Source: Spizellomyces punctatus DAOM BR117 (Eukaryota). From it: a stretch of 33,044 bases of DNA. Shown here piece by piece: positions 4,945-32,681 of the stretch. Numbering within the stretch: the first letter of the stretch is position 1; the number at the start of each line of letters is the position of its first letter. Made by a program: the position numbers and the translations under genes. The notes under the pieces are model-generated. The model saw only the letters and a list, made by a program, of their open reading frames with translations. It made no database searches and was not told where the DNA came from. The stretch lies in the NCBI GenBank assembly GCA_000182565.2, contig KQ257458.1. One strand, given 5' to 3'.

Positions 4945-5859
4945 ATGCCACCAAAAAAGAAGCAAAAGCTTGAAAACCCTACCTTACATACCTGCAACAA
5001 GACTTCCTTTGCAAAAGCTTTCCTGCCAAACGACATCTACCGCCAACGGCTTTTAGATTACACTGCCATCATCCATCAACTTGCTGACCATGCTTCCCAC
5101 GCTCTCAAATTCTACATCCTATCTGCACCATCCTTTCCCACGGTAGATCAAGATACAATCGAAGCGATTCTCTATCTTCTCAACAAAGGAGAGGCTTGGC
5201 AACCAAAAGCTGATGCGAAAAAGGCATTGCGCAAATCCTTGTTGCTGTATGTCCAACAGTACTGCCACATTGTCGGCTTCGTTCATCCAAATCTACAAAA
5301 AGAGCAGCAATCAGTCAATTACCTGACAGCGAGTATGATGACGAACCTGAAAGTCAACGTTCAAGAGCATTTCATGCAGATGCTCCTTCGGTATATCAAT
5401 CTGCGGCTCGATGTGAAGGGACAGAAGCAGCGACTGCCACTGAAAAGCGATGCACGGAAAGCTTTCTTTACTCGGCTATGCTACTTAAAGTCAATTTTCC
5501 TTTTTGATATCGTGCCCAAGTCACTTGATGACTTGACCGCTGAAGAGAGTGAGCTTCTAGAAGAGATGTGGTCCTTCATTCCCCTTTCCGACCAGCCGCT
5601 CGCATATTCAGTTGCTGTTGACCCTCTCGCTTTCTTTCCTGCTTACTGCAAACTCTCTGTGCTGTATGAACGACATGGCTTCCATCGGTTCAGTGCAATA
5701 CCTCTTCGTCGGTCTCTGATTCAGTCCCATATTTGCATCGACACGGTCATCCTGTACCAGCATATCCTTTGCATCATGCGACGGGAAGTGGAAACTGTTG
5801 AAAAGGTCAACTTATGGTTGCGCATCTGTAATCTGCGGAACAAGGCTTTTAGATCTCAT
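4945..5859 (+). pseudogene. Fanzor1 (eukaryotic TnpB-like RNA-guided nuclease), N-terminal half, interrupted by LTR insertion
   Basis: N-terminal NLS MPPKKKQK. Segments MMTNLKVNVQEHF..LLRYIN, FSAIPLRRSLIQSHI(C)IDT and LW..ICNL..KAF resemble Fanzor1 REC/WED regions from memory of the family. The frame is cut where the LTR TG begins (5860), and no RuvC motifs are in the window. TATA box at ~4888. Confidence 0.65.
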
Positions 5860-11827: not shown

Positions 11828-12172
11828 ACTACAAAGTGAGGCACTTTGAGACAATTTCATCAAAAATATTCCCAGGAAGAAAGTGCCACAGGATAAAACC
11901 AATGGTAAAAATTGGAAGCTTATGGAAAGTAAAAAATTATGTAGAGACATGTAGGGATGAGAAATGTCCCCATTTTCCTAGCAAGATTGCAAAAAGAATA
12001 GAAATATCCACATGTTTAAATGGCAACATTGGTTTCCTTGTTTACACAAAAATCCACAGAAGATGTAGGCAACTCAGGCGTCAGAACTCATCCCATCTCA
12101 ACATTACCTTCGAGGCATACCATGCTCTGGAAACATTCTCTTCCCTACATCCCTGACGGCATCTTCCGCCGC
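11828..12172 (+). repeat. Left terminal inverted repeat (345 bp)
   Basis: Reverse complement of 32337-32681. One mismatch seen (12080 vs 32429, in a CpG). Confidence 0.95.
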
Positions 12173-13221: not shown

Positions 13222-16200
13222 CTATTGTCCGAGTTCAGTGATTTTAATGAGGGAAACATCAGTTGTGTTATCGGGAGCAGCCTGACTGATACTAAAATTT
13301 GTGAAGTAAGCAACGTTATCGGCCATCCCTGTAACAATGAATGATGCTGTGATTGTATGATTGACCCCGGAATTAAAGTTAAAGTCGCTCGAGTACACGA
13401 GAGGCATCGACCCAGCGCTTTGGCCGAGAAATATTGACAATGTACCATTTGAGTTTGCTGTGCCATGGAGGTTGACCGTCCACTCCATAAGTACTTTACC
13501 TGGTGTTGAAACATAGAAGACCTTCGAGGCATTGTTGGATTGCCACACGTCTTTAGTCAAAAGTTTGAACACTTGAACATTTCTTAGAAATGTTTGACTG
13601 GAAACCCATGGTTGAGTAGCACAAACCTGACCATTGCTATAGACAGCACCGTTCGAATACAGATTCTCTCCTGCAACAACATGTGCACCAATAGCAACAC
13701 CTCCATTCACCACCAACGCACCTGTTGTACTCGATAAAGCCGGAGTGGTACTTTCAATGATGACATTTCCTGTCGACGATGCAATAGTAATACCCTTCGC
13801 TCCCTGCGCTTGCAATCGCACCGCACCTGCATTGTTCCTGATTGTGAAGGTGTTCACGCCTCCATCCACAGTCCTATTGTTCCCATTCAAAAACATAACA
13901 GCACTCCCTGCGGCATTCTGGAAGTATTGGATTGCGCAACTATTGCTTCCAGGATCAAGGTTTTTAAGAATAATAGCCCGTAACCTGTTAAGTGGCGAAC
14001 CAATAGTTAGATTACCGGACGAGATGAGGTCTCCGGTGTAGGTGTTAACTGAGAATCGGCTATTCCATGTTCCAAAGGTATCACTGGAATAATGACCGAA
14101 TTCATAACGACGTTGGTCTATGCTATCAGACGAGCCGGCGAGGTGAACATGAAGGGCGTCTCCGGAATTGTTATAGCCGATAGTATAATCACCTTTCGTT
14201 GCAGGAGTATCACTTCTCAACTTGAAATATCCACCTGTAGAGGCGGCTATGAGAACTTTTCCTGTAATGTTTCCACCTGAGAAGATACTTTTAGAAACCC
14301 CTATTCCTCCTTTTACCTGTAGAGCCCCACTTGATACGGTTGTTGCCTCGGATGTATCATTAGCAAGAATTGTATTTACCGACAGATTGCTGGTAGGTGT
14401 GAGTAAATCTTGTTTCGATGTTTGCAGTGCTGATATGCTGGGGGCATAGTCAACAATGTTTAAAATACTTCGCACAGCGACGTCATTTGTGAGAGTGAAT
14501 CCTTGGACATCATCTCCCATGAGAAACATATTGCTCATTGGTGACATCGCAGCGAGAGTAGAGAGTAAGGGTGATGCATTTTGCTTCACTGAGAGATCGA
14601 CATTTGTAATGCCTAATAATGTCTTCACCTCTTCAGGAGTTTTCACCGCGAATGTCGTTGCAGAACTCCCTAAAATGAAAGAATTTGCAGATAGTGTGAC
14701 TCCACTAATGGAATCTAGGAGCAGACTCGATGTCTGTTTTGAAGCAATGGCTGCCCCTACATAACTCTCGGTTGCAACTTTCAGATTATTGGAGTACAGA
14801 CTCCCTCCACAGTAGAGATTCTTCGATATTCCAACACCTCCCTTTACTTGGAACGCACCTGTGATTGATGATGAAGCATCTGTGCTTGTATTTACAATGA
14901 CATTCCCAGATGAGAGAATATCTAGTTGAGATGAACTATTTGTTACACCGAATCTCAGGTTCGTATTCCACGCCCTCAGGCAGACGTCGTTAATCTGATC
15001 GTTGAAGAAGGCTTGGCCATTCGAAGATGGGGAGAAGAATGTCATGTCACCAGTATTGACATTTCCACCTATGCTACCCCATCCAAAACCATACCCTGTT
15101 CCTTTCCCACTTGTTACCTTATTACCAACCCACAGAGTCTTCGATATTCCTACACCTCCTAATACCTGTAAAGCCCCTGTTGTTGCAGACGAGGAGTCTG
15201 TAGCAGTCAACACCTTAACTTCGTTTGAAATAGAAACAATCCGCAGACCTAATCCTAGACCAGATTTCCCTTGGATGTTCATGTCTCCACAATCGTTATG
15301 AAGAGTAGCGTTATTTGACGAGCCATCAGCAGTCCTTGTAGAAGAGTTGAGAAAAAGTAAGGCTGCATTTCCGCTATCATTGGAACAACCAATAGCAGTG
15401 TATGCGTTTACGCCAGATGAAATGTTTCTAGATTGCACCCAGTTTGGAGCATCCACAGAGGTGCTACCAATTACATTTCCTCCAGCATACAAGTCCTTGG
15501 CAACACCTAAACCACCACTTACTAGAAGTGCTCCTGTAGTCGAACTAGTCGATTGTGAGGTATTTGTTATCTGTGTAATACCGGTATTAGAAATCTTGAA
15601 CACATAGCCAATGTTGTTATATGAAGAGTTGATTCCGAACCTGCCTGCTGGGTTAGAGCCATCGGCGGTTGAACCTGCAACTCGAATACCCCAAGTCACG
15701 TTTGATGAAGTATTTACCAGTGACATAAAGGTGGGATTGGCGCCATTTTGAACACTCAAATAACCATTTGCAGTAACAGAAGCAAGACTCAGATTTGTTG
15801 ATGTTGTGATACTGGGTTGTTTCCCAGAAAGAAGTGTGTTCACGCTAGCATTTGTAGCAATATCGAGGATGCCTTTCACTTGACTGGAAGTAACATTCTC
15901 GAATGTAGTCCCAGCAGAAGAATAAAGCCAACTGTCTGGCTGCACCATCATCGTGTACAGGCTATTAGTTGTAGCGTTCATAGGCTGCTTCGAGGCGAGT
16001 GCAGAAGTGAGGGAATTGTTGTTATTAGTTACCGTCGTTGTCAATGAAGACAAGGATTGACTTATTGGAGCAGTGTTATCAATTACAAATTTTTGAGAAG
16101 CAACTTCGAGACCTCCGATGTAAGCCATTCCACCGATATACGCATCAGTTGATACTCCTAGGCCTCCACTCACGACCGTATTACCTGATGGGTCAATTCA

Positions 16201-19200
16201 GAATATGTATCCTTTATCTTGGTATGACGAGTAAAAGCCTAATGCTCCAGAAATTAGGTTTCCATTCGATGAACCAGCCACATGGATATTCCATGTCTGT
16301 GCAGCGCTAGAATTTCCTAGTGTGATTGCCGTAGCATTGGTGTTTGAATTCTGTACCGTTAGACCGCTAAGGTTAAGGACACTCGCTGGTGTAATCAACG
16401 GCTGATATGCGCTGAGGATTTCATCTTTAGGTACAATCCGGAAAAAACCACCATTTCCACCCATCAAAAAAGTGCCATCAGTCGGGGTCAGACTACTGAT
16501 ATTGTCGAGCAAAGGAGATAAGTTTTGCTTCGATGCTAATCCAGTCATAACGAATGTTTCCGTTGCTACTTTCATATTGGTGGAGGCATAGATATTACCA
16601 CCAATGAATATGTCCTTTGCAATACCGACACCACCAGGACAAACTAGGGCACCCGTTGTTGAAGATGTTGATACTGTTGTGCTATCCAGTGTAACAATTC
16701 CAGTGTTTGCCTGTATTGTTAGTCCTCTAGCGGTCTGTGCTTGGAGCCGAAGATTTCCAATATCGTTTCTCAATGTCATTGTGTTTTGCCCTCCATCGAC
16801 ACTCCGGTTGTTTCCGTTCAAAAACATCACTCCAGACCCTCCTGAGGCCGTAAGACAAAGAATACTACATGCGTTTCCTCCTGTATTAGTATTGCTCAAA
16901 ACGAGATAACGTAAACTGTTTACAGAAGAGGCTCCAACTGTTAGGTCGCCCCCTACAGCACATGAACCATTTGTGTCCACTCTTAGACCTAGAGTAGGCG
17001 TGCTAGATGTCCTAGGATATATGAACATGGGTAAATCCTGAGCACCGAGCCATGTTGAAGCACCGGGGTTGTATCCTAAGAATCCTGTTCCATCGAGCCC
17101 GAACCATGAACTCTTAGTTCCATCGAATGTTGAATATGTCGTGACCGATGAAGTGCCTGTCATAGATGGAGAAATATTCAATCTGGTTCCACTGATTACT
17201 TTACCACCGATATTACCACTGAATGTCACATTATTCGAAGTTAATGCCGTTATCTGGCTTCCAACCCAAGGTTTGATGACTTCGGTATCATAATCCCTTA
17301 GCATAGAGAGGTTAATTGCTTGCTGAGGGTATTCGTATTTGATGCCTCAATAACATGAAGGCGTATCAAACAAGAGACGAGTACAACCTCCTATGGGATC
17401 AGAAGCAATTGTGACATTGCTCCCGGGTTCAAGTGGTGGCATGAAGGTAACAGGGTCTATTGGTTCATAAACGGGGTTTCCATCGCCATCGAGTATAGGT
17501 TGGCCTTCCGCATCTCGTTGAACCTTACGTTTGCATGACCCTCCGAAAATCATTCCCCAAGGGAACGTTGAGACGATTGGGAGGATGGAGTTTACAGCCA
17601 TAGGGACTGTCAAGGGTGGGGAGACCATCGCTGGAAAAGGTACGGTTGATAATGGAGTTGCTCCGGACAAAATAACAGTGTTGCCTGATGGAACATCCAT
17701 TTTTAACACTTCTGCGGTATCACTCTGTTCAGTATTATCGGTATCCCTTTGCTTTGATAATGGCATAGGGTCAATGAGGGTAAAGTTATAAAGTGGATAC
17801 GAACCTGTAATGATGAGATTTGGACTGTTACTTACGAATTGAGGAGGAATCATGTTATACTGAATCATATTTCCAACAACAATAATACTTCCATATGAGT
17901 TGGTACTGCCCACATAATTACCTCTTAAGGTATCGCCTACGCGAAGAATAGTATCGCTTCCTGAAATCGAACATGAAATCAAATCACCGCTAACTTGCAC
18001 TCCATTGATACCTCTTAGGTTTGTTGACAAAATCGCACCATTTTTTTGCAGTCCAATTCCCGCAGCGATGTTTGAACTCAGAACACCATTGTTTAGAGTA
18101 AGATCGGGTGACTGTGCTGTTAAACTCAGTCTGAAGTCGTTCCCCGTCCTGGTTACCCCTTGGGAGGCTGTGAAGGTATCCCGTATGGTTCCCCTGTTGA
18201 CCATAGCCAAACCTGAATTAGCATCAACTTTTAGATCGAGTTGAAGGTCATTCTGTACTCTCTCAATACCATTGCTGCAAGTCAGTACATCTTTAATGGT
18301 ATCTGCTTTGACCATTTGGAGACAACTGCCAGCCTCGCATTTAAGAGATAATACCACATCATTGGTCGTTCCAGGTCGAATAGATACGCCATTAAAGTCC
18401 TGAAAAATGTACCCACCTGTGAGTGCATTTCCAACAATTCTGATGGTCTGATTATCGACCAAACAGCCTATCTCTCGACGTCCGTTAAACTCGGGTCCCA
18501 CTGCAAGCACTCCTGTTTGAGAGCCTTGATAAAATTGGGAAAGATAGTCTTTACTCACTGCATATGAGCCACCTCCAATAGCAGGAAATACTCCAGTTAA
18601 TTTGACATTTGGTACACACAACTCCTGAAGCGTGGACGAATAAGTGAATGAAGAACTTCCCGAGTAGCCATAAGTAAGGTTCCCATACAGGATTTGTTCA
18701 TAGCCAGGTGATCGTAATGAAAGTTTCGATCCCGCTTGACTGAATGTAGAAGAATCGACCATTAAGCGAATTGCTGTGGTGTCTACTTCTCCTAACACAT
18801 CAGTCATTTCGGTCAAACTATTGAATCCAAAGTCGAGCCATGAAGACCCGATGTCTAACAGCATATCCGCACCTGAACTCGATTTCAGAGCGCCAAATGC
18901 TTTTAGTACCGACTGAATGTTAGTTTCCAATTCGTCATTATTGTTCACCTTTAGACTTTTATGAAGTTTGATTCCAAGGCCGCTCTGGTCACGATACAAC
19001 GGCTTTTTCAGCATCTCAGGATCAGGAAAATTAACCGATAGACCGTTTTCAGTTATAAGCAAAGTATCATCTGCTTGTAAACCAACCGTATGTGATTCGG
19101 CATCCCTGTAGAGTGGAAAATCATAGTTATAAGGTATGACTGTTAATTTTCCACCCCCAACTTTTAGTTCATCATCATCAATGTTTAGGCTTACTGTTCG

Positions 19201-19554
19201 TGAGTTGGGAGCCCTATAGAGAGGTTGCAGGAGTGTCTCTGGTTTAACAGATAAGCCGTCTTCTGTTATAAGCAGAGTATCGTCTGTTACAAGCCTGACA
19301 TCATGTTCATCATTAATTAATGGAAAAACATAAGTTGTCTCGGCAAGAGAGATGGTATATTTACCTTTATTTTTCTGAATGGAGAGACTGGGCGTTTGAC
19401 TATCCAAATCGAGTATAGTGACTATACCATCTTTATTTCGTAGGCTCTCTCCATAGATAGAATTGGCTTTAACTTTTCCGGACTTGAAATTATCTAGGAC
19501 TTCTAAATTTCTTCGAACCGTATATGTGCCTTGAATGCTATTAGGCAAAGGCAT
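13222..19554 (-). pseudogene. Giant fibre/spike-like virion protein (~2110 aa) broken by two in-frame TGA (17347-17349, 16198-16200)
   Basis: The 735, 368 and 983 aa ORFs share one frame, separated only by single TGA codons. Contains beta-spiral-like repeats (PLYR..L.L..D.L.I..GLSV), six TGALxVxGGxG repeats and three FLN..R..DG..N..TLRN modules. Rich in S/T/G/N. Confidence 0.8.
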
Positions 19555-19612: not shown

Positions 19613-20464
19613 CTATACAATCTCATCAAAGACGGGATATGGCTCTGCGCCGGGATCCCTGCCGGGATAGGCCACTCCGTGCCCGGCATGCCTGCCGGGA
19701 TATGGCTCTGCGCCGGGATCCCTGCCGGGATTGGCCACTCCGTGCCCGGCATGCCTGCCGGGATATGGCTCTGCGCCGGGATCCCTGCCGGGATTGGCCA
19801 CTCCATGCCCGGCATACTCATGTCCATTTTTAAAACGGACTACATCTGCGCGAGTGGGATGAACAGGGCGAGTTCTCTTTCTCTTGATGACTTTAAGAAC
19901 CTCATAATCATCATCATCTGAAGAATCATCTGACGATTCCTCAACTACAATCTGCCGTCTTTTTTTCGGTATTGGCATTTTAATTCACTTCGCTTTAGTC
20001 TTGTGACTTTGTAAGTCCTTCATATAGTTGCGGAGCCTAGCCTCGACACATTTTTCCTGTTCCACTCTAAGGGCTTCGGCCTTAGCAAGAATCCGTTCAT
20101 CCTCTTTTCTCTTCTTTTCTAGTTCTCTCTCTTCTTTTCTCTTGGCGGCAAGTTCTCGTCTAACCTGAAGAGCCTTTTCTTGGCTTTTTTCTAAATGTGC
20201 TCGCTGCTTCTCTGATGCAGTATGTTTTTTGGGAGCGCTGGTATTGACCTCTCCGGGATTGGCCGCTCCGCGCCCGGCATGCCTGCCGGCATTTGGCTCT
20301 GCGCCGGCATATTTGTTTACAAGTTCTTGAACATAGTCTTGATGATCATCGTCATTAGTTTCATCATCATCATTCAAACTTTGTTCTTCATCTGTAATGT
20401 CCTGGTCAGGTATGCCTGCCGGCATTTGGCTCTGCGCCGGCATAGATTCCTTTTTTTTAGGCAT
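19613..20464 (-). pseudogene. Charged coiled-coil viral protein (~283 aa) with one in-frame TGA at 19985-19987
   Basis: The MPKKKES ORF continues in frame (AAG TGA ATT AAA ATG) into the 121-aa ORF. Contains an acidic tract, a SEKQRAHLEK coiled coil, a KKRRQIVVEESSDD segment and a 21-aa repeat. Confidence 0.65.
19633..19815. repeat. GC-rich 63-bp tandem repeat x2.9
   Basis: Units start at 19633, 19696 and 19759. Related dispersed copies occur elsewhere in the element. Confidence 0.95.
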
Positions 20465-21532: not shown

Positions 21533-21790
21533 ATGTCGTCTCAACAAAGGAAGGAATGGATACAAGAGCGTTTGAGGAGGAAGTTGGCTGAAAGGCATGC
21601 CGGGCGCGGAGGACCCGTCAAAGACGATTCCGACTCATTAGGAGTGCCAATGCCGGGCTCAGGCATGACGAATATATACAGTAAGGAAACCATCATTCCA
21701 GACGCTGATGCGAGTGATATTAACTGGAATGAGTATGTTATTATTCCTGAAAATCCTCTTTACATTGATGACTTGAATGAAATCATTTGA
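21533..21790 (+). CDS. Small hypothetical viral protein (85 aa)
   Basis: ATG follows a 50-bp AT-rich spacer, divergent from the ORF starting at 21482. Confidence 0.5.
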   Translation: MSSQQRKEWIQERLRRKLAERHAGRGGPVKDDSDSLGVPMPGSGMTNIYSKETIIPDADASDINWNEYVIIPENPLYIDDLNEII

Positions 21791-21804: not shown

Positions 21805-22122
21805 TTAATACCCCGCTAATTCGACAGGAAGCGATTTCCTTAGCGCTGAATCAAAATTCTGTTGGATCTCATAGGATTGCCCTAGACCTTTATGGAGATC
21901 ATCGATATAACCTCATCCTCGTGAAATTGTCTCTCTTACTTTGATGGGTACAGATTCGTCATGGACTAGAGATTGATGAACCTTTCCATAAATATCTCTG
22001 GCTTGGCCGGCATGGTTTACAAATTGTCAAATTCCATTGTTTACTTTGCTGTAACTGTTCAACGCCCGAAGACCAAAGTTCTTTGCACTTGAGAGAAAGT
22101 TTGCAAATTTTTGACGCAACAT
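21805..22122 (-). pseudogene. Hidden 105-aa amphipathic-helix protein (adenovirus protein VI / Polinton PX-like candidate) with two in-frame TGA
   Basis: Manual translation: MLRQKFANFLSSAKNFGLRALNSYSKVNNGI*QFVNHAGQARDIYGKVHQSLVHDESVPIKVRETISRG*GYIDDLHKGLGQSYEIQQNFDSALRKSLPVELAGY. It fills the gap directly after mCP. Confidence 0.6.
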
Positions 22123-22149: not shown

Positions 22150-22893
22150 TTAATCATCTGCAAAGCCGGAGGAATGACAATCGAGAACCAAAGTGAACCC
22201 TTTGCCCTGTAAATCAATCGGTAATAGCATTTCAGCATCAAGCAAACGGATGTTGATGGTACTAACAAGGCCTGACTCTGTGTCAATGAAGTTGGTATCG
22301 AAATAATTCTGCGCACACAGCACGGTGTCTATTTCCTGGCTTATTGGAATCGATGCTAGAATATTTAGATCATCGGCTCCAGCAACTATAACATCGCTAG
22401 AACATAAGTTTGTCGATGAGACGAGCACCATCTTAACACCTGTCAAATCGATTGGATTCGCGAAAGTTATTGATCTCCCAGGGTCAGATTGCTGCGTCTG
22501 AACTAATCCAAGCAGTTTGCTCGCTGTTGTTTGAGGGTAGAGAACTTTGAATGGTGTTGTACCCGCGGTCACTGTTATTTGACTGTTTATATGATTGTAT
22601 TCTACAGTGTATGCTTGCGTCCCAGTCGAGTTGAATCCAGCAGTCAGTGCATCCACTAAATCATCTGGAGAGTAAGTACCAGGAGGAATAGCAAAAGTCC
22701 TTGCAGCATTACCCATCCCAGCATCATAAAAGGAGACAATATTGTTCTTGTCATTTACTATGTTCCACGAAAGGGGCAAAATGATCGAATTGTATTGAAT
22801 TTTATCACATGCGATGGGTTTGGCTAGAGTCCATTTAGGTTCATTCTTGTTTCTGTTCGTCGCCCTGTTGCTATCGAGAATCAACTTTTTCAT
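22150..22893 (-). CDS. Minor capsid protein (penton, single jelly-roll), 247 aa
   Basis: Motifs LILDS, IPPGTY, KLLGL, ILASIPI and INIRLLD..PIDLQG..FTLVL are typical of PLV/virophage pentons. Adjacent to the ATPase and MCP. Confidence 0.8.
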   Translation of the reverse strand: MKKLILDSNRATNRNKNEPKWTLAKPIACDKIQYNSIILPLSWNIVNDKNNIVSFYDAGMGNAARTFAIPPGTYSPDDLVDALTAGFNSTGTQAYTVEYNHINSQITVTAGTTPFKVLYPQTTASKLLGLVQTQQSDPGRSITFANPIDLTGVKMVLVSSTNLCSSDVIVAGADDLNILASIPISQEIDTVLCAQNYFDTNFIDTESGLVSTINIRLLDAEMLLPIDLQGKGFTLVLDCHSSGFADD

Positions 22894-22940
22894 TTCTTCT
22901 AATGTATTATAGATACAGAGAGCAAATAAAAACAAGTGCA

Positions 22941-23612
22941 ATGAAGCCAATCACAATAGCCCCTTTACCTAGTCAAGTCTCTGGATGCATAAAGGATAAT
23001 ACAGATCCACGGCTTCCTAGAAAGTATGGTTTTATCATATACAATGGCGCTCGATTTAGCGGTAAAACGCTAAACATTGCTGTGATATGCAAATTGTTCT
23101 TGAAGAAGCAGTATTCGAATATCATAATATTCACACCAAATCCGCATGACACCAATTGGAACCCCTTAAGAACGAGCAAAAAGGTTCATATATTTGACAA
23201 GATTTCCAATGAAATACTCAATTTTATACACGAAGAGCAACTTTATGAATTTGTTCGAAGTGGAAGAAAACGAGACCTGCTTCTAATCATAGATGACTAC
23301 AACATGCAAAAGGGACATAAGAAGTCACTCGATGAGTTGGCAACTTGTGGAAGGCATGCTGGTATCACTTGCATCCTGTCGAGTCAATATTTTTATCACA
23401 ATAGTCCCGCTGTACGTAGCAATGCAACAAACTGGATCATTTTTAGACCTTTGAAAAGCGAACTTAAGAAAATGGTCGAAGCAGGCTTATCTCTCGCTTT
23501 ACCTGAAGATGTATTTGAAAAGTTCGTTATGGATAATACAAAGAAACTGTTTCATTTTGTGCACATAAATCTACAAAGTTCGAAACGACCATTTAGAGTT
23601 GGTTTTTCATAA
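22941..23612 (+). CDS. A32/FtsK-like DNA packaging ATPase (223 aa; alternative start at 22902)
   Basis: Walker A GARFSGKT, Walker B LLIIDD, and the GRH..I..ILSSQ and VRSN motifs. Confidence 0.92.
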   Translation: MKPITIAPLPSQVSGCIKDNTDPRLPRKYGFIIYNGARFSGKTLNIAVICKLFLKKQYSNIIIFTPNPHDTNWNPLRTSKKVHIFDKISNEILNFIHEEQLYEFVRSGRKRDLLLIIDDYNMQKGHKKSLDELATCGRHAGITCILSSQYFYHNSPAVRSNATNWIIFRPLKSELKKMVEAGLSLALPEDVFEKFVMDNTKKLFHFVHINLQSSKRPFRVGFS

Positions 23613-23646: not shown

Positions 23647-25050
23647 ATGTCATCCGATATTGAAGTAACAGAGGTCAGACGTGTCCCATCGGCATTTACT
23701 TATAAAAGATCCGCAAAAAATGGAGTCATTCTAAACTTCCAGCCATCTAGTCAGGTTCGCTTCGAGCCAACAAACGGAAGTGGAGATTGCCGACCAGGCG
23801 GGAAACTAGTTTTTAAAATAGCAGACGACAAGCGCTTCTGGCTCGTTAATGAAACGCTGCACAAATATCGTGTAGTCGGCTTAAAAGCAGATGGTTTGCC
23901 AGCAGTAGCAGTTAATGCTGACTACAGGCTCTGTCAATCTGGAACTGATGCTGTATGGAAACGTCAATCTCTCCTGATTAATGGAAGGATCATTGAAGAT
24001 CTCAATGACTATAATTTGTTCACTGTGCATGAAAATGCCTTAACATCATGGGAAACCAAACAACATCTAGGCCAATGCGAGTATTATTCAAGTGAGGATA
24101 ACAACCGTTCAGCAGTGGTCGCTCAAAACAACGCATACACCGTTACCGGGTCATTGCTATCATTCTTTCAAAATGAAGTGGCTTTTCCTCTCTGTCTTGT
24201 GAAAGGAGGAGTAAGCCTGGAGATGACCGCCGAGACAGACCTTTCCAAAATATTCCCAAAATCCACAGGGATTACGTCCTTCAAAGTAGAACAAAACAAA
24301 TTAATATGTCAGTTTGCTGAACCGGTCAAGGCTTACTATGATAAAGTGCTTGCTTTGATGCAGGCTGAGGATCCTACACCCCTGACTATCCCCACTCAAA
24401 TAGTATGGAGTCAAGAATTTGCAGGACAAGATAGTTGAGTACAACAACTCTCGCTTGTAACAGGTGAGCAGTCCTCTGTTTCGTCATTGATGTTGGTGAC
24501 AACTGACAATGTTCTAACAGATGTAGACAAACTGAATTATTCGGACGATGCAGGTATTAGAACAGTGTCTATGCAAGTAGGAATGGAACGGTTCCCACAA
24601 GGGAAGGCTATTGGACATGGCTCTGAGAAAACAGGATTTGTCTCTACTATTGACCCTGAGATGTATGCATTGAGTCAACGTAACAAGGATTTCAATGATG
24701 TGAAGTTTGCGCCCACTATGTCTGATTTGAAAGGATGGGATCTAGGAGGCAAAAAGATAAAACATTGGTCATGGAGACAAAATTTCAAGCAAACCCCAGA
24801 CATGATTGGCAGCGGTCTTCAGACTCTAGCCGATGGACGAATTTTAATCAATGTTTCTCAATATCCAAATCCTCCAGAAACAGCCGATTTCCCAAGCGAA
24901 ACTATAACTACAGGAACCGGAGATTCACAAACGACATCGCCTAACCCCGCTTACATTCCTACATTCAAGAACAAGATGTTTCATGTATTTTGGACTACTG
25001 ATCATGTGATGAGCATCGACAAAGATGGTATTAGATTGGTTCCGGCATAG
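23647..25050 (+). pseudogene. Major capsid protein (double jelly-roll, PLV-like), ~467 aa with one in-frame TGA at 24436-24438
   Basis: The 263 and 187 aa ORFs share one frame. Motifs F.P.NG..PG..L.F.I, L.INGRIIEDL.DYN, FPL....GG..LE, V...RFP and GSGL. Lies just downstream of the ATPase. Confidence 0.8.
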
Positions 25051-25109: not shown

Positions 25110-25283
25110 ATGGCTAAGAAATCCCATAGAAAACTCGTCAACATATCGGCTATGCCAAATAAAGGACTTAGAGCGGCTGCTCGTGCAAGAAACAGGCACA
25201 TCATTGCTGCTAGAAAAGCCGCAGCAACACGTAAGCGACGCTACGGTTCTGGAAGAGTCGTGAGGCGTGTTGTTTATGTTTAA
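25110..25283 (+). CDS. Small Arg/Ala/Lys-rich basic protein, putative DNA-condensing core protein (57 aa)
   Basis: MAKKSHRK...RAAARARNRHIIAARKAAATRKRRYGSGRVVRRVVYV, with no acidic residues. Directly follows the MCP. Confidence 0.65.
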   Translation: MAKKSHRKLVNISAMPNKGLRAAARARNRHIIAARKAAATRKRRYGSGRVVRRVVYV

Positions 25284-25448
25284 AAAAACGGCGCCAAGAA
25301 ATGCCAAGACTATGCCGGGCGCAGCGGCCTATCCCGGCAGGGGATGCCAAGATTCTTTCCATTGAATGGAAGGGCATCCCTGAGTACAAGCCGGTGGCAT
25401 AAAAAGGCACTCGGTGTATCTTTTCTCCCATTAGCACAAGTACGGGTT

Positions 25449-26448: not shown

Positions 26449-26760
26449 ATGGGACGCAAATCAGGATCGATAAACACGAAGGATCGCTACAGGGTATACA
26501 AGATCGAAGAAGATGGTTCTAGAACATTTGTAAATGACTATCGGGCAGCCATAGAGATTGCTAACAGGTTAGGTGTCTCGCGCTCGTACATTCATAATAT
26601 AATACATGGGTTAGCAGAATCGCCTATTTCAAAGATGTATGCTATAGAAAAGTTACCATGTATACGAAAACCACCACCTCGTCCTAAGCGGAGATGCTTT
26701 AAAATAAATCGAAAAGTGGCTATTCCTGATGATCCAGTAAAAGTTGCTCACTTCGCATGA
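26449..26760 (+). CDS. Small helix-turn-helix (NUMOD1-like) DNA-binding protein
   Basis: DYRAAIEIANRLGVSRSYIHNII fits an HTH pattern. Basic termini. Confidence 0.7.
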   Translation: MGRKSGSINTKDRYRVYKIEEDGSRTFVNDYRAAIEIANRLGVSRSYIHNIIHGLAESPISKMYAIEKLPCIRKPPPRPKRRCFKINRKVAIPDDPVKVAHFA

Positions 26761-27062
26761 ACATCCCTGCCGGGATTGGCCGCTCCGCGCCCGGCATCAT
26801 TTGAAGAACAAATACGTTTAAAGCTTTGAAAATATTTATTTTTTAACACTATATATTTCTATTTACTATGCCTTTGATTTTTAACCCAATCACCAACAGA
26901 CACGTAAAAGAAGACTCGAAGCCTTTTGAGAGGATGATGCGAAAGATTGTATCTGGAAACTTCTCTAGTGAAAACTGGACTAAGAAACAACTAGATGCAC
27001 TAGAGAACCTTCAAATACATCGAGTACCAAGATTCCTACAATCTGAGCGAGAAAAAAGAATT

Positions 27063-27382
27063 GCTGCTGCGAGACGCACTGAGGCTCAAAAGCAGGCTAT
27101 TGCTGAAAAGGCCAGAGAGACGAGAAGGCTTAATAAAGAAGCAGAAGAGCGCGAGATGAGAGAAATTCAAGAGAGGGCTCAGGCTGCTATTAAAAAGCGA
27201 AAGGAAGCCACTAAGAAGGCTGCTGCGAGACGCACTGAGGCTCAAAAGCAGGCTATTGCTGAAAAGGCCAGAGAGACGAGAAGGCTTAATAAAGAAGCAA
27301 AAGAGCGTCAGATGAGAGAAATTCAAGAGAGGGCTGAGGCTGCTATTAAAAAGCGAAAGGAAGCCGCTAAGAAGGCTGCTGC
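27063..27382 (+). repeat. 156-bp (52-aa) tandem duplication in the pPolB N-terminus
   Basis: Near-identical units start at 27063 and 27219. Confidence 0.95.
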
Positions 27383-29682
27383 CACTAGGGCTAAACGTAA
27401 GTATAATCTTCGAAAGCATCAAGAATCATTCTCACCTTTAATATCTGTCAAAGAGATCAAAATCAAAGGTATCGGTTATACAAAGGAACTTTATCGGTTC
27501 AATCCAAAGTACACCTTCGCTACTCATGATGATATTGTTTCATTTTTCAATGATGTCATCAAGGAATCACTTGTAGGCCTTGAACGCGGTGACAAAGTGC
27601 AAATAGGGTTTCAACATCAAAGTCTACACAATGGATTTTGGTCATCAAAAGTTGTATCAGTTAGTGATCTGATTGCTTCTGATGTGATAGACGATATTAC
27701 TGCGAGAATGCAATCGGCTGAAATAGCATCAATCGATGAAAGCATGACTATCGAGGTGCGTCGTTTAGTTTCGGTAAAGGGCGGCGCCTTCAAAAACTAT
27801 CATGACCATCTATCAGCACAGTCAAAAAGATGTGTCATTGTTGTGAAAAACAATGGTAACGATTGTGGTATGAGAGCAGTTGCCTTATCCGTAGCATTCC
27901 ATACAATGGATCACTCAACAAATGAATATGCGTACATCATGAAACAAAGAAAGCCACTGGACAAAATTGTTACTAACTATTATGAAGGATGCGGGTTACC
28001 TGTTGGTCAGAAGATGTCTTACGGCGATTTTCCAAAGTTGGTTTCATTCCTCAAAAGGAACATCATTATTGTTGATCTAGAGAACGGTGGTAAACCTCTC
28101 ATGGTCAAAGGTGTTAACAATGAGTGATACGATGAGAAACCTGCTACTATCCTACGTAAAGGGGATCATTTCGATTGCATAACCAAGATTAACGCCTTTT
28201 ACTGTGCATTGTATTTTTGTTTCCAATGCATGAAAGGACACAAGCATACCAATCATAAATGTGATAAGAAACGAGGATGCAACCTTTGTGGTTGGGTCAC
28301 ATGTAAACAAGGATCTCCCGATGATCTAGTGTTGTGTTTAAGTTGTAACTTAGGTCACTTTTCAGGAGATTGTGATGATTATCACAAGGAGAAAAAATGT
28401 GATAAAATATGGAAATGTAACAAGGAAGGCGGCTGCGGGCGTGTATTTGAGCGTGCTTATTATGATGGTAATTGTGCTGAGTTACACGATTGCAACCACC
28501 ATCTCTGCCGTCCTTGCAAGGCTTATGTCACTCCTGACCATCGATGCTTCATACAGAAAAAGAAACCCAGAAAGCACATTAGCAAGATCATAGCATTTGA
28601 TTTTGAATCAGAGTTTCTACATGATGGTGAACATCGTGTAAAGTTTACGGATTGCAAGGTAGTTTGTACCGGTCTATGCCAATCTGTGTGCCAATGTCAT
28701 GAGCATCACTCCTTCTTTGAATTTGACGCTTTTTATCAATTCATCTTCAAGAACCCTAATACAACATTCATTGCTCACAATGGTAAGGGTTACGATTTCC
28801 ACTTTCTCTTCAAAAAGTTCAATGACAACGGTGTTAAGCCTAAGTATATCTCAAATGGGTTGAAGATCATTTCAATGGTGCTGCCCAAGTTCAACATCCG
28901 GTTCATTGATAGCATGTTGTTTTTGCCTATGGGACTGTCAAAGTTGCCTTCCATGTTTGGATTAGAGGAACATGTTCGTAAGGGTTACTTTCCACATTGG
29001 TTCAAATGTTCAAATGATTATAAAGGCGTTTTACCATCTTTGGATGATTTCCGATTTGACAGTATGCCCTATGATAAACGCGCTGATGCACAACGCTGGT
29101 ACAAGAAAACCCTACGCAAATGCATGAAGGGTAGGTATGTTTTTGATTACACTAAGGAACTTGTTGAATACTGCAAGAATGATGTCGATATTCTAGCAGC
29201 GGCCGTGAAATTGTTCCGAGAGCAATTCCTTGTAGCAACCGATGGTGAAATTGATCCTTGGGCTTATAAAACCATAGCATCGGCATGTATGGGGACTTAC
29301 AGGCATATGTTCATGCCTGAAGAAAGCATACCCACACATCATGAAGAAGGAATGCGGCGTCATTCAGACAAGGCTGTCCAGTGGCTCGAATATCTACGCG
29401 ATAATGGCATTCTGGATATGCGACGTGTTCTACGTGGTGGAGAGAAATGGATTGACCGATTAAATGGGAAAAAATTCTATGCCGATGGCTATTCTCCTTC
29501 GACAAATACTGTGTATGAATTTAATGGTTGTGAATTCCATGGGTGTAAACAATGCAAAGACGATGATGCCGTTAATTATCATGGTGTCCCTTATAAGTCT
29601 TTGAGACGATATACCGATAATAAGCATGAAGAATTGATTGCTCTAGGTTACAATTATGTCTCGATCTCAGAGTGTGAATATG

Positions 29683-29782
29683 NNNNNNNNNNNNNNNNNN
29701 NNNNNNNNNNNNNNNNNNNNNNNNNNNNNNNNNNNNNNNNNNNNNNNNNNNNNNNNNNNNNNNNNNNNNNNNNNNNNNNNNN
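29683..29782. other. Assembly gap (100 N)
   Basis: Run of Ns inside pPolB. Confidence 0.99.
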
Positions 29783-31263
29783 AAACAAGAAGATATGTGA
29801 TTATGTTATGAGTAAAGACCTCGACATTGAATATATCCGACCTCTAGATCCTCGTAACGCATTTTTTGGTGGTAGAACAAATGCCAGCAAACTTTACTAC
29901 AAATGTTCTGAGAAGGAAAGAGTGAAATACTGCGATTTTACATCACAGTATCCTTGGGTAAATGCTTTTGGAGAGTACCCATGCTACTCGTTCCCCACAA
30001 GGATTCTTAACAACTTTGATGGCCAACTGAACTACAATGGTTTCATCAAGTGTCGAATAGTACCCCCTCGTGGGTTATATCACCCTGTACTTCCTGATAA
30101 GATTAACAACAAGACCATGTTTGTTCTTTGTAAGAATTGTGCTGAAAAAGGTATCTCTGTTTGTCGCCACTCTGTTGAACAGAGGGCTTTTGTTGGGACT
30201 TGGTGCATTCCAGAAGTGAAGTTAGTGCTTTCAAAGGGCTATGTCATTTCTCAAGTTTATGAGGTTCTTCATTTCGAAAATACGGGATCTGATCTTTTCA
30301 AAGATTACATCTTCACATTTCTCAAAATCAAGCAGGAAGCATCAGGGTACCCTAAATGGTGTAAAAATGATGACGACAGAAAAAAGTATATTGACGACTA
30401 CAAAAGCAAGCAAGGTATTCGTCTTGATCCAGCCAAAATTGTCTACAATGAAGGATTACGTCTCGTGGCTAAGTTGATGCTCAATTCATTGTGGGGTAAA
30501 TTCGGTCAAAAGAACAACATGCGTAAGCATATCACGATCAATGCTGAGGAAAATCCTGATGAATACTACTCCATCATGTTCAATGCTAAATATATCGTAC
30601 ATGACATAGTTGATTATGATAATGGTCGCACTTTGGATCTGTCATACTCCTTGCATAAGGCTGCTGTTCGTGATGACAAGAATACTAGTATTTTCATTGC
30701 TGCATACACTACCGCTTTGGCTCATTGTAAACTTTACAGTGTTCTGGATACTGTAGGGGAAAAGGTGTTGTACTATGATACTGATTCTATTATATATGTT
30801 GATGATGATATAGGATCAACTGAAAAGACTTTGCCCTATGGTAATTATCTTGGAGACCTGACAGATGAATTGAAAGGCGACCATATTGTAGAATTTGTTT
30901 CAGGTGGCGCTAAGAATTACTCTTACATTCTCAACAAAACAGGGAGAGCAAAGACGGTCTGTAAAGGCTTCACACTTTCATATGAAAATGGACTCAATCT
31001 TGGACATGAGTCTATGAAGGATATAGTATTTAACCCTAGGTACATTGATGATGAAGGGATTGAGAAAGAGAGTTGTGTTAATTTTAACTTTAGCGAAATC
31101 AACATTAGTAAAACACACAGTGTGCGTAACAAGACAAAGATCATCATACCAGAAAAAAATAACTTACCCAGCAAAAAGTACAAGTTTGTCTACAACAAAC
31201 GTGTGGTTCAAGAATTTAACTCTGAGTCTAAGGTCATAGAGACACTTCCTTTCGGTTTTTAAA

Positions 31264-32364
31264 ATGGGGACAAAAACCGAACTAATCAAGAAAGTTTACT
31301 ATGATCCCAAGACTGGACTTCAGAGCGTAGAAAAGCTCTACCAGAGACTCAAGGATCAGGGTATTTCCAGAAAGGATATAAAGACATTCATCGACAGTCA
31401 GCATGTGCAACAAGTACACAAACCTCTTGTCAAGCCTAACTACATGCATATAACAGCCAATGGTGTTGATCACATATGGCAATCGGATTTGTGCGACATG
31501 CAGAAATATGCTACCTACAACAACGGTTACCATTATCTGTTATGTATTGTAGACATGTACTCTCGTTATGCCTTTGTTTTTCCTCTCAAGAATAAAACCA
31601 GAGAAAAGATTGCTGATTGTTTTACAAAGTTACTCGCTAGGCGGCGTCCTAAAAATATCACGACTGATAGGGGTTCAGAGTACAACAACATTGTTTTTGA
31701 GCAATTGCTCTATAAGTATGGTATAAACCATTACATGGCTGAAGTTGCTGACCATAACCATATGGGTCTGGTCGAAAGGTTTAATTGTACACTGAAAAGT
31801 GTTATCTCCAGATACATGACCATATTTAAAACTAAGCGCTACATAGATGCTCTTCCTGACCTTGTTATGAACTACAATACTTCATATCACAGTCTATTGA
31901 AAAAGGCACCTGTCAATGTTGCTGATGGTGATTATGTGCGCGATAATAGCAAGGCTGTAAGTGATTTCAAGAAGTTTGACATTGGCGACCATGTAAGAAT
32001 ATTACTCAAATGGGATATTTTCAAAAAAGGATATGAGGCAAAATGGTCTGATGAAGTATACCATATAGTCAATGTCGATGGCTATCGATTCATAGTAGCA
32101 TACGCCAATGGTAAAGAAATAGACCAGTGTTTCAAATACTATGAATTACAGAAAACCAATGCACCGATTACCGAGAAACCAGGTCATCGACCAGTAAAAT
32201 TGACTAGAACACAAAAAGAAGTTCGCAAAGAAATTCGTCAGTTGGAGCCTGTACAAACACGACCTACTAAAACCAGATTGCAACAGAAAAAGTTAAAAGT
32301 TCATCTGAAGGGTACATTTTCACACATAGAAATTCCGCGGCGGAAGATGCCGTCAGGGATGTAG
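31264..32364 (+). CDS. int: Polinton-type retroviral-like (rve, DDE) integrase, 366 aa, no chromodomain
   Basis: YYDP..G N-terminus; catalytic WQSDL, TTDRGSEY, VERFN; YN..YHS; F.IGD.VRI..F.KGY..KWS. Confidence 0.93.
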   Translation: MGTKTELIKKVYYDPKTGLQSVEKLYQRLKDQGISRKDIKTFIDSQHVQQVHKPLVKPNYMHITANGVDHIWQSDLCDMQKYATYNNGYHYLLCIVDMYSRYAFVFPLKNKTREKIADCFTKLLARRRPKNITTDRGSEYNNIVFEQLLYKYGINHYMAEVADHNHMGLVERFNCTLKSVISRYMTIFKTKRYIDALPDLVMNYNTSYHSLLKKAPVNVADGDYVRDNSKAVSDFKKFDIGDHVRILLKWDIFKKGYEAKWSDEVYHIVNVDGYRFIVAYANGKEIDQCFKYYELQKTNAPITEKPGHRPVKLTRTQKEVRKEIRQLEPVQTRPTKTRLQQKKLKVHLKGTFSHIEIPRRKMPSGM

Positions 32365-32681
32365 GGAAGAGAATGTTTCCAGAGCATGGTATGCCTCGAA
32401 GGTAATGTTGAGATGGGATGAGTTCTGATGCCTGAGTTGCCTACATCTTCTGTGGATTTTTGTGTAAACAAGGAAACCAATGTTGCCATTTAAACATGTG
32501 GATATTTCTATTCTTTTTGCAATCTTGCTAGGAAAATGGGGACATTTCTCATCCCTACATGTCTCTACATAATTTTTTACTTTCCATAAGCTTCCAATTT
32601 TTACCATTGGTTTTATCCTGTGGCACTTTCTTCCTGGGAATATTTTTGATGAAATTGTCTCAAAGTGCCTCACTTTGTAGT
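32337..32681 (-). repeat. Right terminal inverted repeat (345 bp)
   Basis: Reverse complement of 11828-12172. Confidence 0.95.

Follow-up and report, generated by a model that had tools for sequence, protein, structure and literature searches.

Adenovirus protein VI (pVI) is made as a precursor that is cut at both ends; it has a lytic helix at its N-terminus, a PPxY motif and, at its C-terminus, a cofactor for the protease, and an L40Q change impairs its lysis (excerpts of PMC8310329). Lysis needs no cleavage, as precursor and mature forms are both lytic (excerpts of PMC4113798), and residues 48-74 of pVI bind hexon (passages of PMC5996824 citing Matthews and Russell 1995). Further precedents for proposed pVI-like or lytic functions, likened to the protein studied here by description, are the adintovirus Cupiennin-like, PLA2X and GasderminX proteins, adomavirus LO6 and the C-terminal helix of the mavirus capsid protein. 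For LO6, moderate HHpred matches to pVI have been reported, with pVI left unclustered with these proteins (parts of 10.1101/341131), and for mavirus a lytic helix has been proposed in the capsid tail (excerpts of PMC6048507). The original prediction for the locus described below had taken Polinton PX as the counterpart of pVI, which is mistaken: PX is the penton (passages of PMC4028283), a single jelly-roll protein, whereas the small protein considered here is predicted to be all-helical and has the penton as its neighbouring gene.

From chytrid fungi, Starrett et al. 2021 (PMC8502044, in part) described six Powellomyces MELD viruses, and the legend of their Fig. 6 carries a 'VI' label whose bearer virus is not stated in those portions; together with the weak LO6 match, this label is possible prior art. 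Bellas and Sommaruga 2021 (PMC7805220, in part) described an integrated group of Polinton-like viruses (PLVs) of Spizellomyces punctatus, which is likewise integrated, capsid-encoding and from a chytrid, and which may be the element studied here or the second family treated below; those parts of the paper do not discuss the small gene. Our literature search turned up no publication that assigns a pVI homologue to Polintons or PLVs, and the portions consulted of PMC11071308, 10.1101/2023.08.22.554363, 10.64898/2026.06.19.733378 and PMC11296320 hold nothing on pVI homologues.

An integrated Polinton-like element and its capsid module

The window analysed here is a 33,044-nucleotide stretch of S. 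punctatus DAOM BR117 (contig KQ257458.1), and it holds a whole Polinton-like element of 20.9 kb (11828-32681), recognised by its terminal inverted repeats and target-site duplication. The 345-nt repeats (11828-12172 and 32337-32681) are 100% identical, the duplication is 6 bp long, and the element sits within a Ty3/Gypsy-type retrotransposon. The hallmarks of Polinton-like viruses are present in the form of a penton, an A32 ATPase, the terminal inverted repeats and an integrase. The penton, or minor capsid protein (22150-22893, minus strand, 247 aa), is a single jelly roll whose AlphaFold model matched the mavirus penton best in Foldseek (E 1.1e-8), followed by the Sputnik and adenovirus pentons; its nearest named sequence homologues come from Spizellomyces punctatus (95%) and Powellomyces hirtus. 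An A32-type packaging ATPase (22938-23612, plus strand; PF04665, E 2.4e-6) is followed by the candidate major capsid protein gene (23647-25050, plus strand), labelled from its size, its position beside the ATPase and the published S. punctatus PLV group. This candidate has a stop at codon 264, is open over 462 aa in a sister copy and found no match in a PDB sequence search.

Behind the capsid gene lies an Arg/Lys-rich ORF of 57 aa (25110-25283, plus strand) that falls below the 80-aa ORF cut-off, has no Pfam match and is conserved in a sister copy (L022, about 5520-5720); it could possibly encode a DNA-condensing core protein. The remainder of the element comprises three long fibre-like genes (13222-19554, minus strand), labelled from repeat-rich sequence and position with no Pfam match, a polymerase gene (26868-31262, plus strand) with a stop at codon 420, which by its motifs would encode a protein-primed family B polymerase, and an RVE integrase (31264-32364, plus strand; PF00665, E 5.4e-17). 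Among the 22 proteins scanned we recognised no Adenain/Ulp1 maturation protease, and no lipase or fusogen; a genome search for the protease was empty, and its control was likewise without any match.

Several features of the element stand apart from the capsid module. The 5' part of the polymerase gene contains a 156-nt tandem duplication (97%, 27063-27374) that, judged by the length of the alignment, a sister copy lacks. A G+C-rich 63-nt repeat in three tandem copies is accompanied by related motifs, on either strand, at several further places in the element; the positions involved are 19633-19821, 20224-20444, 25315-25342 and 26741-26803. In another sister copy (L019, 2984-4114), the same capsid module is joined to a different integrase, 34% identical to that of the window, without adjacent replication genes on the integrase side, an instance of modular swapping.

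A conserved small gene behind the penton gene

The gap after the penton gene is filled by a 105-codon frame on the minus strand, read from 22122 to 21805 (ATG to TAA), which starts 27 bp past the penton stop and has internal TGA codons at positions 32 and 70. This is the frame that had been predicted behind the penton gene as missed by the ORF track, and both points were borne out; the ORF list misses the gene because the longest open stretch from its ATG spans only 31 aa. On the combined evidence of the frame, six copies, homologues, helix prediction, dN/dS and profile comparison, we annotate 21805-22122 as the pseudogenised copy of a small helical capsid-module gene, a candidate for remote kinship with the N-terminal domain of pVI. 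A further ORF of 85 aa (window 21533-21790, plus strand) converges on the small gene and is about 60% identical in sister copies.

To follow the frame beyond this copy, we searched the genome, and all six candidates returned matched at 91-100% identity, a count that leaves out a seventh, divergent copy of the module with incomplete sequence. The original prediction depended on the frame being conserved in sister elements, and we found open sister copies as well as intact homologues beside the penton gene. The small gene is open in two of the six genomic copies, the other four carrying one or two TGA codons (at codons 19, 32, 68 or 70), and the order of penton followed by small gene was the same in the copies inspected. 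Between subgroups, dN/dS was 0.09-0.11 in all nine pairs; within subgroups, CpG-type transitions made up 34 of the 36 pairwise differences, and dN/dS was 0.2-0.9 where defined. The low ratios between subgroups, together with the CpG decay within them, indicate that purifying selection acted on the gene while it belonged to a virus, and that decay set in once it had integrated. An alternative genetic code or read-through was ruled out, given that the stops vary among copies, that two of six copies are stop-free and that 34/36 of the within-subgroup differences are CpG-type. Since its stops are attributable to recent CpG decay, the studied copy represents a conserved gene that has become a pseudogene. 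With stops in the small, capsid and polymerase genes of this element alike, the suggested inference of a true infectious entry pathway cannot be drawn from the studied copy. One RNA run placed 62 short reads scattered across 7.4 kb, which is uninformative.

These data also bear on whether the frame might lack a function or encode a non-structural protein engaged in host interaction or regulation. Virion location is something we infer from gene position only, which leaves some room for a non-structural protein; the dN/dS of about 0.1, however, excludes a functionless frame, and the gene stays within the capsid module across elements with 35%-identical pentons and across copies with different integrases, so that we regard either explanation as highly improbable.

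Querying with an open natural copy, we found six homologues outside the genome at 34-75% identity, two of them (P0003 and P0004) at 73-75% and four (P0006-P0009) at about 36-62%; these last four were kept from the five non-redundant rows that remained once P0010, a YadA repeat, and P0011 had been discarded as chance matches driven by repeats. A profile search of the family gained no further member. P0007 is DAC81669.1, a 'hypothetical protein' of Powellomyces chytrid fungus MELD virus 4, and is a true sequence homologue (55% identity, E 1.9e-26). It is annotated at 202 aa with no function assigned, compared with 105 codons for the small protein, by virtue of an N-terminal extension of about 100 residues; its first helix is degenerate, and the combination may reflect a fusion, a mis-called start or decay. 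In four cases, homologues of the small protein and of the penton lie on equal-sized contigs (7908, 7601, 10796 and 3938), an indirect sign of linkage. An ESM Atlas search gave best scores of 0.88 and 0.85 to unnamed clusters, which serve as leads only. Neither IMG/VR nor JGI yielded a match when scanned with the small protein, the penton or the ATPases. Conservation extends over the full length of the protein, and the family has a net charge of +6 to +11. AlphaFold predicted a helix at residues 2-53, a short loop and a second helix at 60-97 (pLDDT 76, pTM 0.47, 7 rows); Foldseek with this helical hairpin returned nothing at E<=0.001, listing generic coiled coils only. Collectively, these findings establish the small gene as a real, conserved and unannotated fourth gene of the capsid module in chytrid Polinton-like viruses.

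Likeness to the N-terminal domain of pVI

For comparison with adenoviruses we assembled 36 natural pVI genes by motif and a further 17 by way of the neighbouring hexon gene; the full motif is missing from every one of these 17, and all the pVI genes look mastadenoviral. Residues 6-23 of the small protein (codons 6-23, 22054-22107, minus strand), a basic amphipathic helix segment by moment and alignment, pair without gaps with pVI 44-61, the best register being family residue i on pVI i+38. A second block (codons 73-99, 21826-21906, minus strand), which is independent of the helix first picked out by eye, pairs with pVI about 80-108 and on its own scored 19.2, a value that none of 150 class-preserving shuffles attained. 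For the seven N-termini, which are mutually non-independent, comparison with random sequences matched in hydrophobic and charge pattern gave p values of 0.0005-0.012. When a pVI-helix profile was run over 1862 natural frames, the four best were copies of the small gene, by a thin margin (7.7-10.5 versus 7.4 bits).

A more distant member came from a metagenome scan with the penton only, which yielded two loci from 315 candidates. One of them (L073), with a penton 35% identical to ours, has the order capsid, ATPase, penton and then a 104-aa gene in the same slot. With the family profile, this gene, whose discovery made no use of pVI, came first among the contig's 188 frames (13.0 bits, E 0.001); with the pVI-helix profile it led again (13.4 bits, E 0.0006), and the register was the same. 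Shuffles within residue classes matched its observed score in 1 of 3000 trials, compared with 38/3000 for P0002 and 78/3000 for P0008. Another locus (L074) was too short to hold the small gene, and a further candidate (L075) was a false positive, a phage protein. The likeness to pVI noticed in the original prediction therefore held to the extent that it beats pattern-preserving nulls and recurs in the held-out metagenomic gene; the register, in contrast, lies one heptad off the proposed pairing of KNFG with KNFG.

With L073 included, HHalign placed family residues 3-99 collinear with pVI 41-108 over 67 columns at 84% probability (E 7e-6), and at 81% against the 17 motif-independent pVI sequences; without L073, the probability fell to 21% and 12%. 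The family-pVI profile score was 36.8, compared with 17.2 and 13.4 for reversed profiles, and was reached by none of 150 free and none of 150 class-preserving column shuffles. On 2278 adenoviral frames, the family profile placed pVI in 43 of the best 50 positions, with one non-pVI frame above every pVI. Broader pVI profiles interleaved chance frames with family members. Three PDB searches with the family profile did not list pVI at E<=10, though nine pVI sequences were present; unrelated helical proteins stood higher, and the Pfam family PF02993 (MCPVI) was matched in no family search. By our arithmetic, screening 50,000 profiles would turn the pairwise E of 7e-6 into about 0.3. Profile comparisons are known to yield false matches where short amphipathic helices are involved. 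As judged from these comparisons, the likeness of the small protein to the pVI N-terminal domain would be full-length yet sub-threshold, and is suggestive.

Set beside pVI feature by feature, the small protein shares N-F, K-x-aromatic-G-x-K/R and a later D-x-A-I/L-x-K, as well as a small helical N-terminal domain and a gene located among the capsid genes. It differs in being about 105 aa long where pVI has 200-290, in lacking the 33-residue propeptide, the proline-rich middle, the C-terminal cofactor and its cysteine, and in having about 30 extra residues in the middle. PPxY occurs in none of seven family members but in 35 of 36 pVI sequences, and a cleavage-like motif was seen in only one of the seven. 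The small protein starts at the equivalent of pVI 39 and has no counterpart of the Trp-rich 34-41 stretch. Because several defining features of pVI were tested and found absent, the small protein should not be classed with the pVI family.

We then considered whether the small protein could be a dedicated membrane-penetration protein, which would leave the capsid and, as pVI does, use its N-terminal helix to rupture endosomal or plasma membranes, the role originally proposed for it. The stretch that it shares with pVI includes part of the lytic helix, namely the distal half, Leu2 of the family (six of seven rows) falls on pVI position 40, where L40Q impairs lysis, and pVI lysis is independent of cleavage (excerpts of PMC4113798). 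A non-enveloped virus, moreover, needs a penetration device, and no lipase or fusogen was recognised among the 22 scanned proteins. On the hydrophobicity scales applied, which underlie all moments and interfacial energies given here, the N-termini of the seven core members have moments of 0.31-0.57 and charges of +2 to +5, equalling pVI 42-59 (0.44, +3). The predicted N-terminal basic amphipathic helix is accordingly present (residues 5-22, moment 0.41, charge +3), but it is not outstanding and not the most amphipathic part of the protein, with windows near residues 61-81 reaching 0.54. The Trp-rich first half of the pVI helix has no equivalent here: pVI 34-38 is unmatched, Trp41 and Trp59 are replaced by Arg and Leu, and Trp occurs in 0/7 core members. 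The best family 18-mer has an interfacial energy of -1.3 to +0.5 kcal/mol, weaker than the -4.5 of pVI 34-51 and similar to the -0.4 of pVI 42-59, and conservation over the full length is what would be expected of a protein-protein scaffold. For these reasons the proposed lytic role found no support, and we consider it unlikely.

We favour, at a probability of roughly 0.4, a small inner-capsid protein of chytrid Polinton-like viruses that corresponds to the N-terminal domain of pVI and acts as capsid cement or assembly partner. The two long amphipathic helices with their short loop would equal the helical N-terminal domain of mature pVI (about residues 39-108), and the protein may bind major-capsid trimers from inside, cementing them or chaperoning assembly, as pVI 48-74 does for hexon. 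As the protein starts directly with the helix, no maturation cleavage would be needed, which fits an element without a recognised protease gene. Once freed at uncoating, the protein could make contact with membranes through the basic helix at its N-terminus, though probably less strongly than pVI does. Given that the Trp-rich half, the propeptide and PPxY are absent, and that the match takes in the hexon-binding residues, the part of pVI that appears to have been kept is the capsid-binding rather than the strongly lytic one; capsid binding, common descent and any membrane role are what we infer from these likenesses.

A second virus family and the question of origin

The same genome contains a second, distant virus family, with an ATPase and penton about 30% identical to those of the element. 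Beside its capsid gene, tail to tail, lies a gene for a basic helical protein of 99 aa, identified by this position (L024:4198-4497 and L028:5008-5307, both plus strand; also L030-L036), open in 7/7 copies, with a dN/dS of 0.10-0.18 and two N-terminal Trp residues. Among 1862 frames, these genes ranked right after the family members (8.5-10.8 bits versus 5.1), and on this ranking they are probable counterparts of the small gene. By composition, the 99-aa protein is the better lytic candidate of the two. HHalign of the small-protein family against it gave 3% with the untrimmed alignment and 38% with the trimmed one, and its own comparison with the pVI profile gave 0.5%.

This second family is pertinent to the possibility that the small protein is a virion protein of independent origin, whether cement, scaffold or DNA-binding core, whose likeness to pVI, first picked by eye, reflects convergence or chance. 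The probable counterpart there has no pVI match, library-wide searches did not reach pVI, the match leans heavily on the one added member, L073, the net charge also suits DNA binding, and the penton is nearest to mavirus, not adenovirus. Against this, L073 was held out and matches in the same register, better than the query; the second collinear block passes its own null; and class-preserving nulls never came near the observed score. Weighing these observations, we judge an independent origin somewhat unlikely, and put descent of the small protein from a common ancestor with pVI, as read from sequence, at about even odds.

For the favoured inner-capsid protein, this would mean that chytrid PLVs carry a minimal, protease-independent pVI homologue and that the helical domain, which binds the capsid and contacts membranes, predates adenoviruses, so that a fungal DNA virus would employ a device of the pVI type in assembly and entry, a proposal that we place a little short of an even chance. 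The propeptide, Trp-rich tip, PPxY and protease cofactor would then be later acquisitions of the adenoviruses. If the proposal is true, part of what adenoviruses use for entry and assembly may be of more ancient origin. A stand-alone 105-aa relative of the pVI N-domain would connect these adenovirus processes with the Polinton-like world, and, its chytrid host being culturable, it would be open to study with peptides and purified proteins. Should the likeness be convergent instead, the capsid module still gains a conserved, unannotated fourth gene.

The fibre-like genes differ from the capsid genes in how they compare across the two virus families: those at 13222-19554 are 70-83% identical to their counterparts in L024, L027 and L028, where pentons and ATPases are only ~30% identical, and the attachment module thus appears, from these identities, to have been recently exchanged between the two families.
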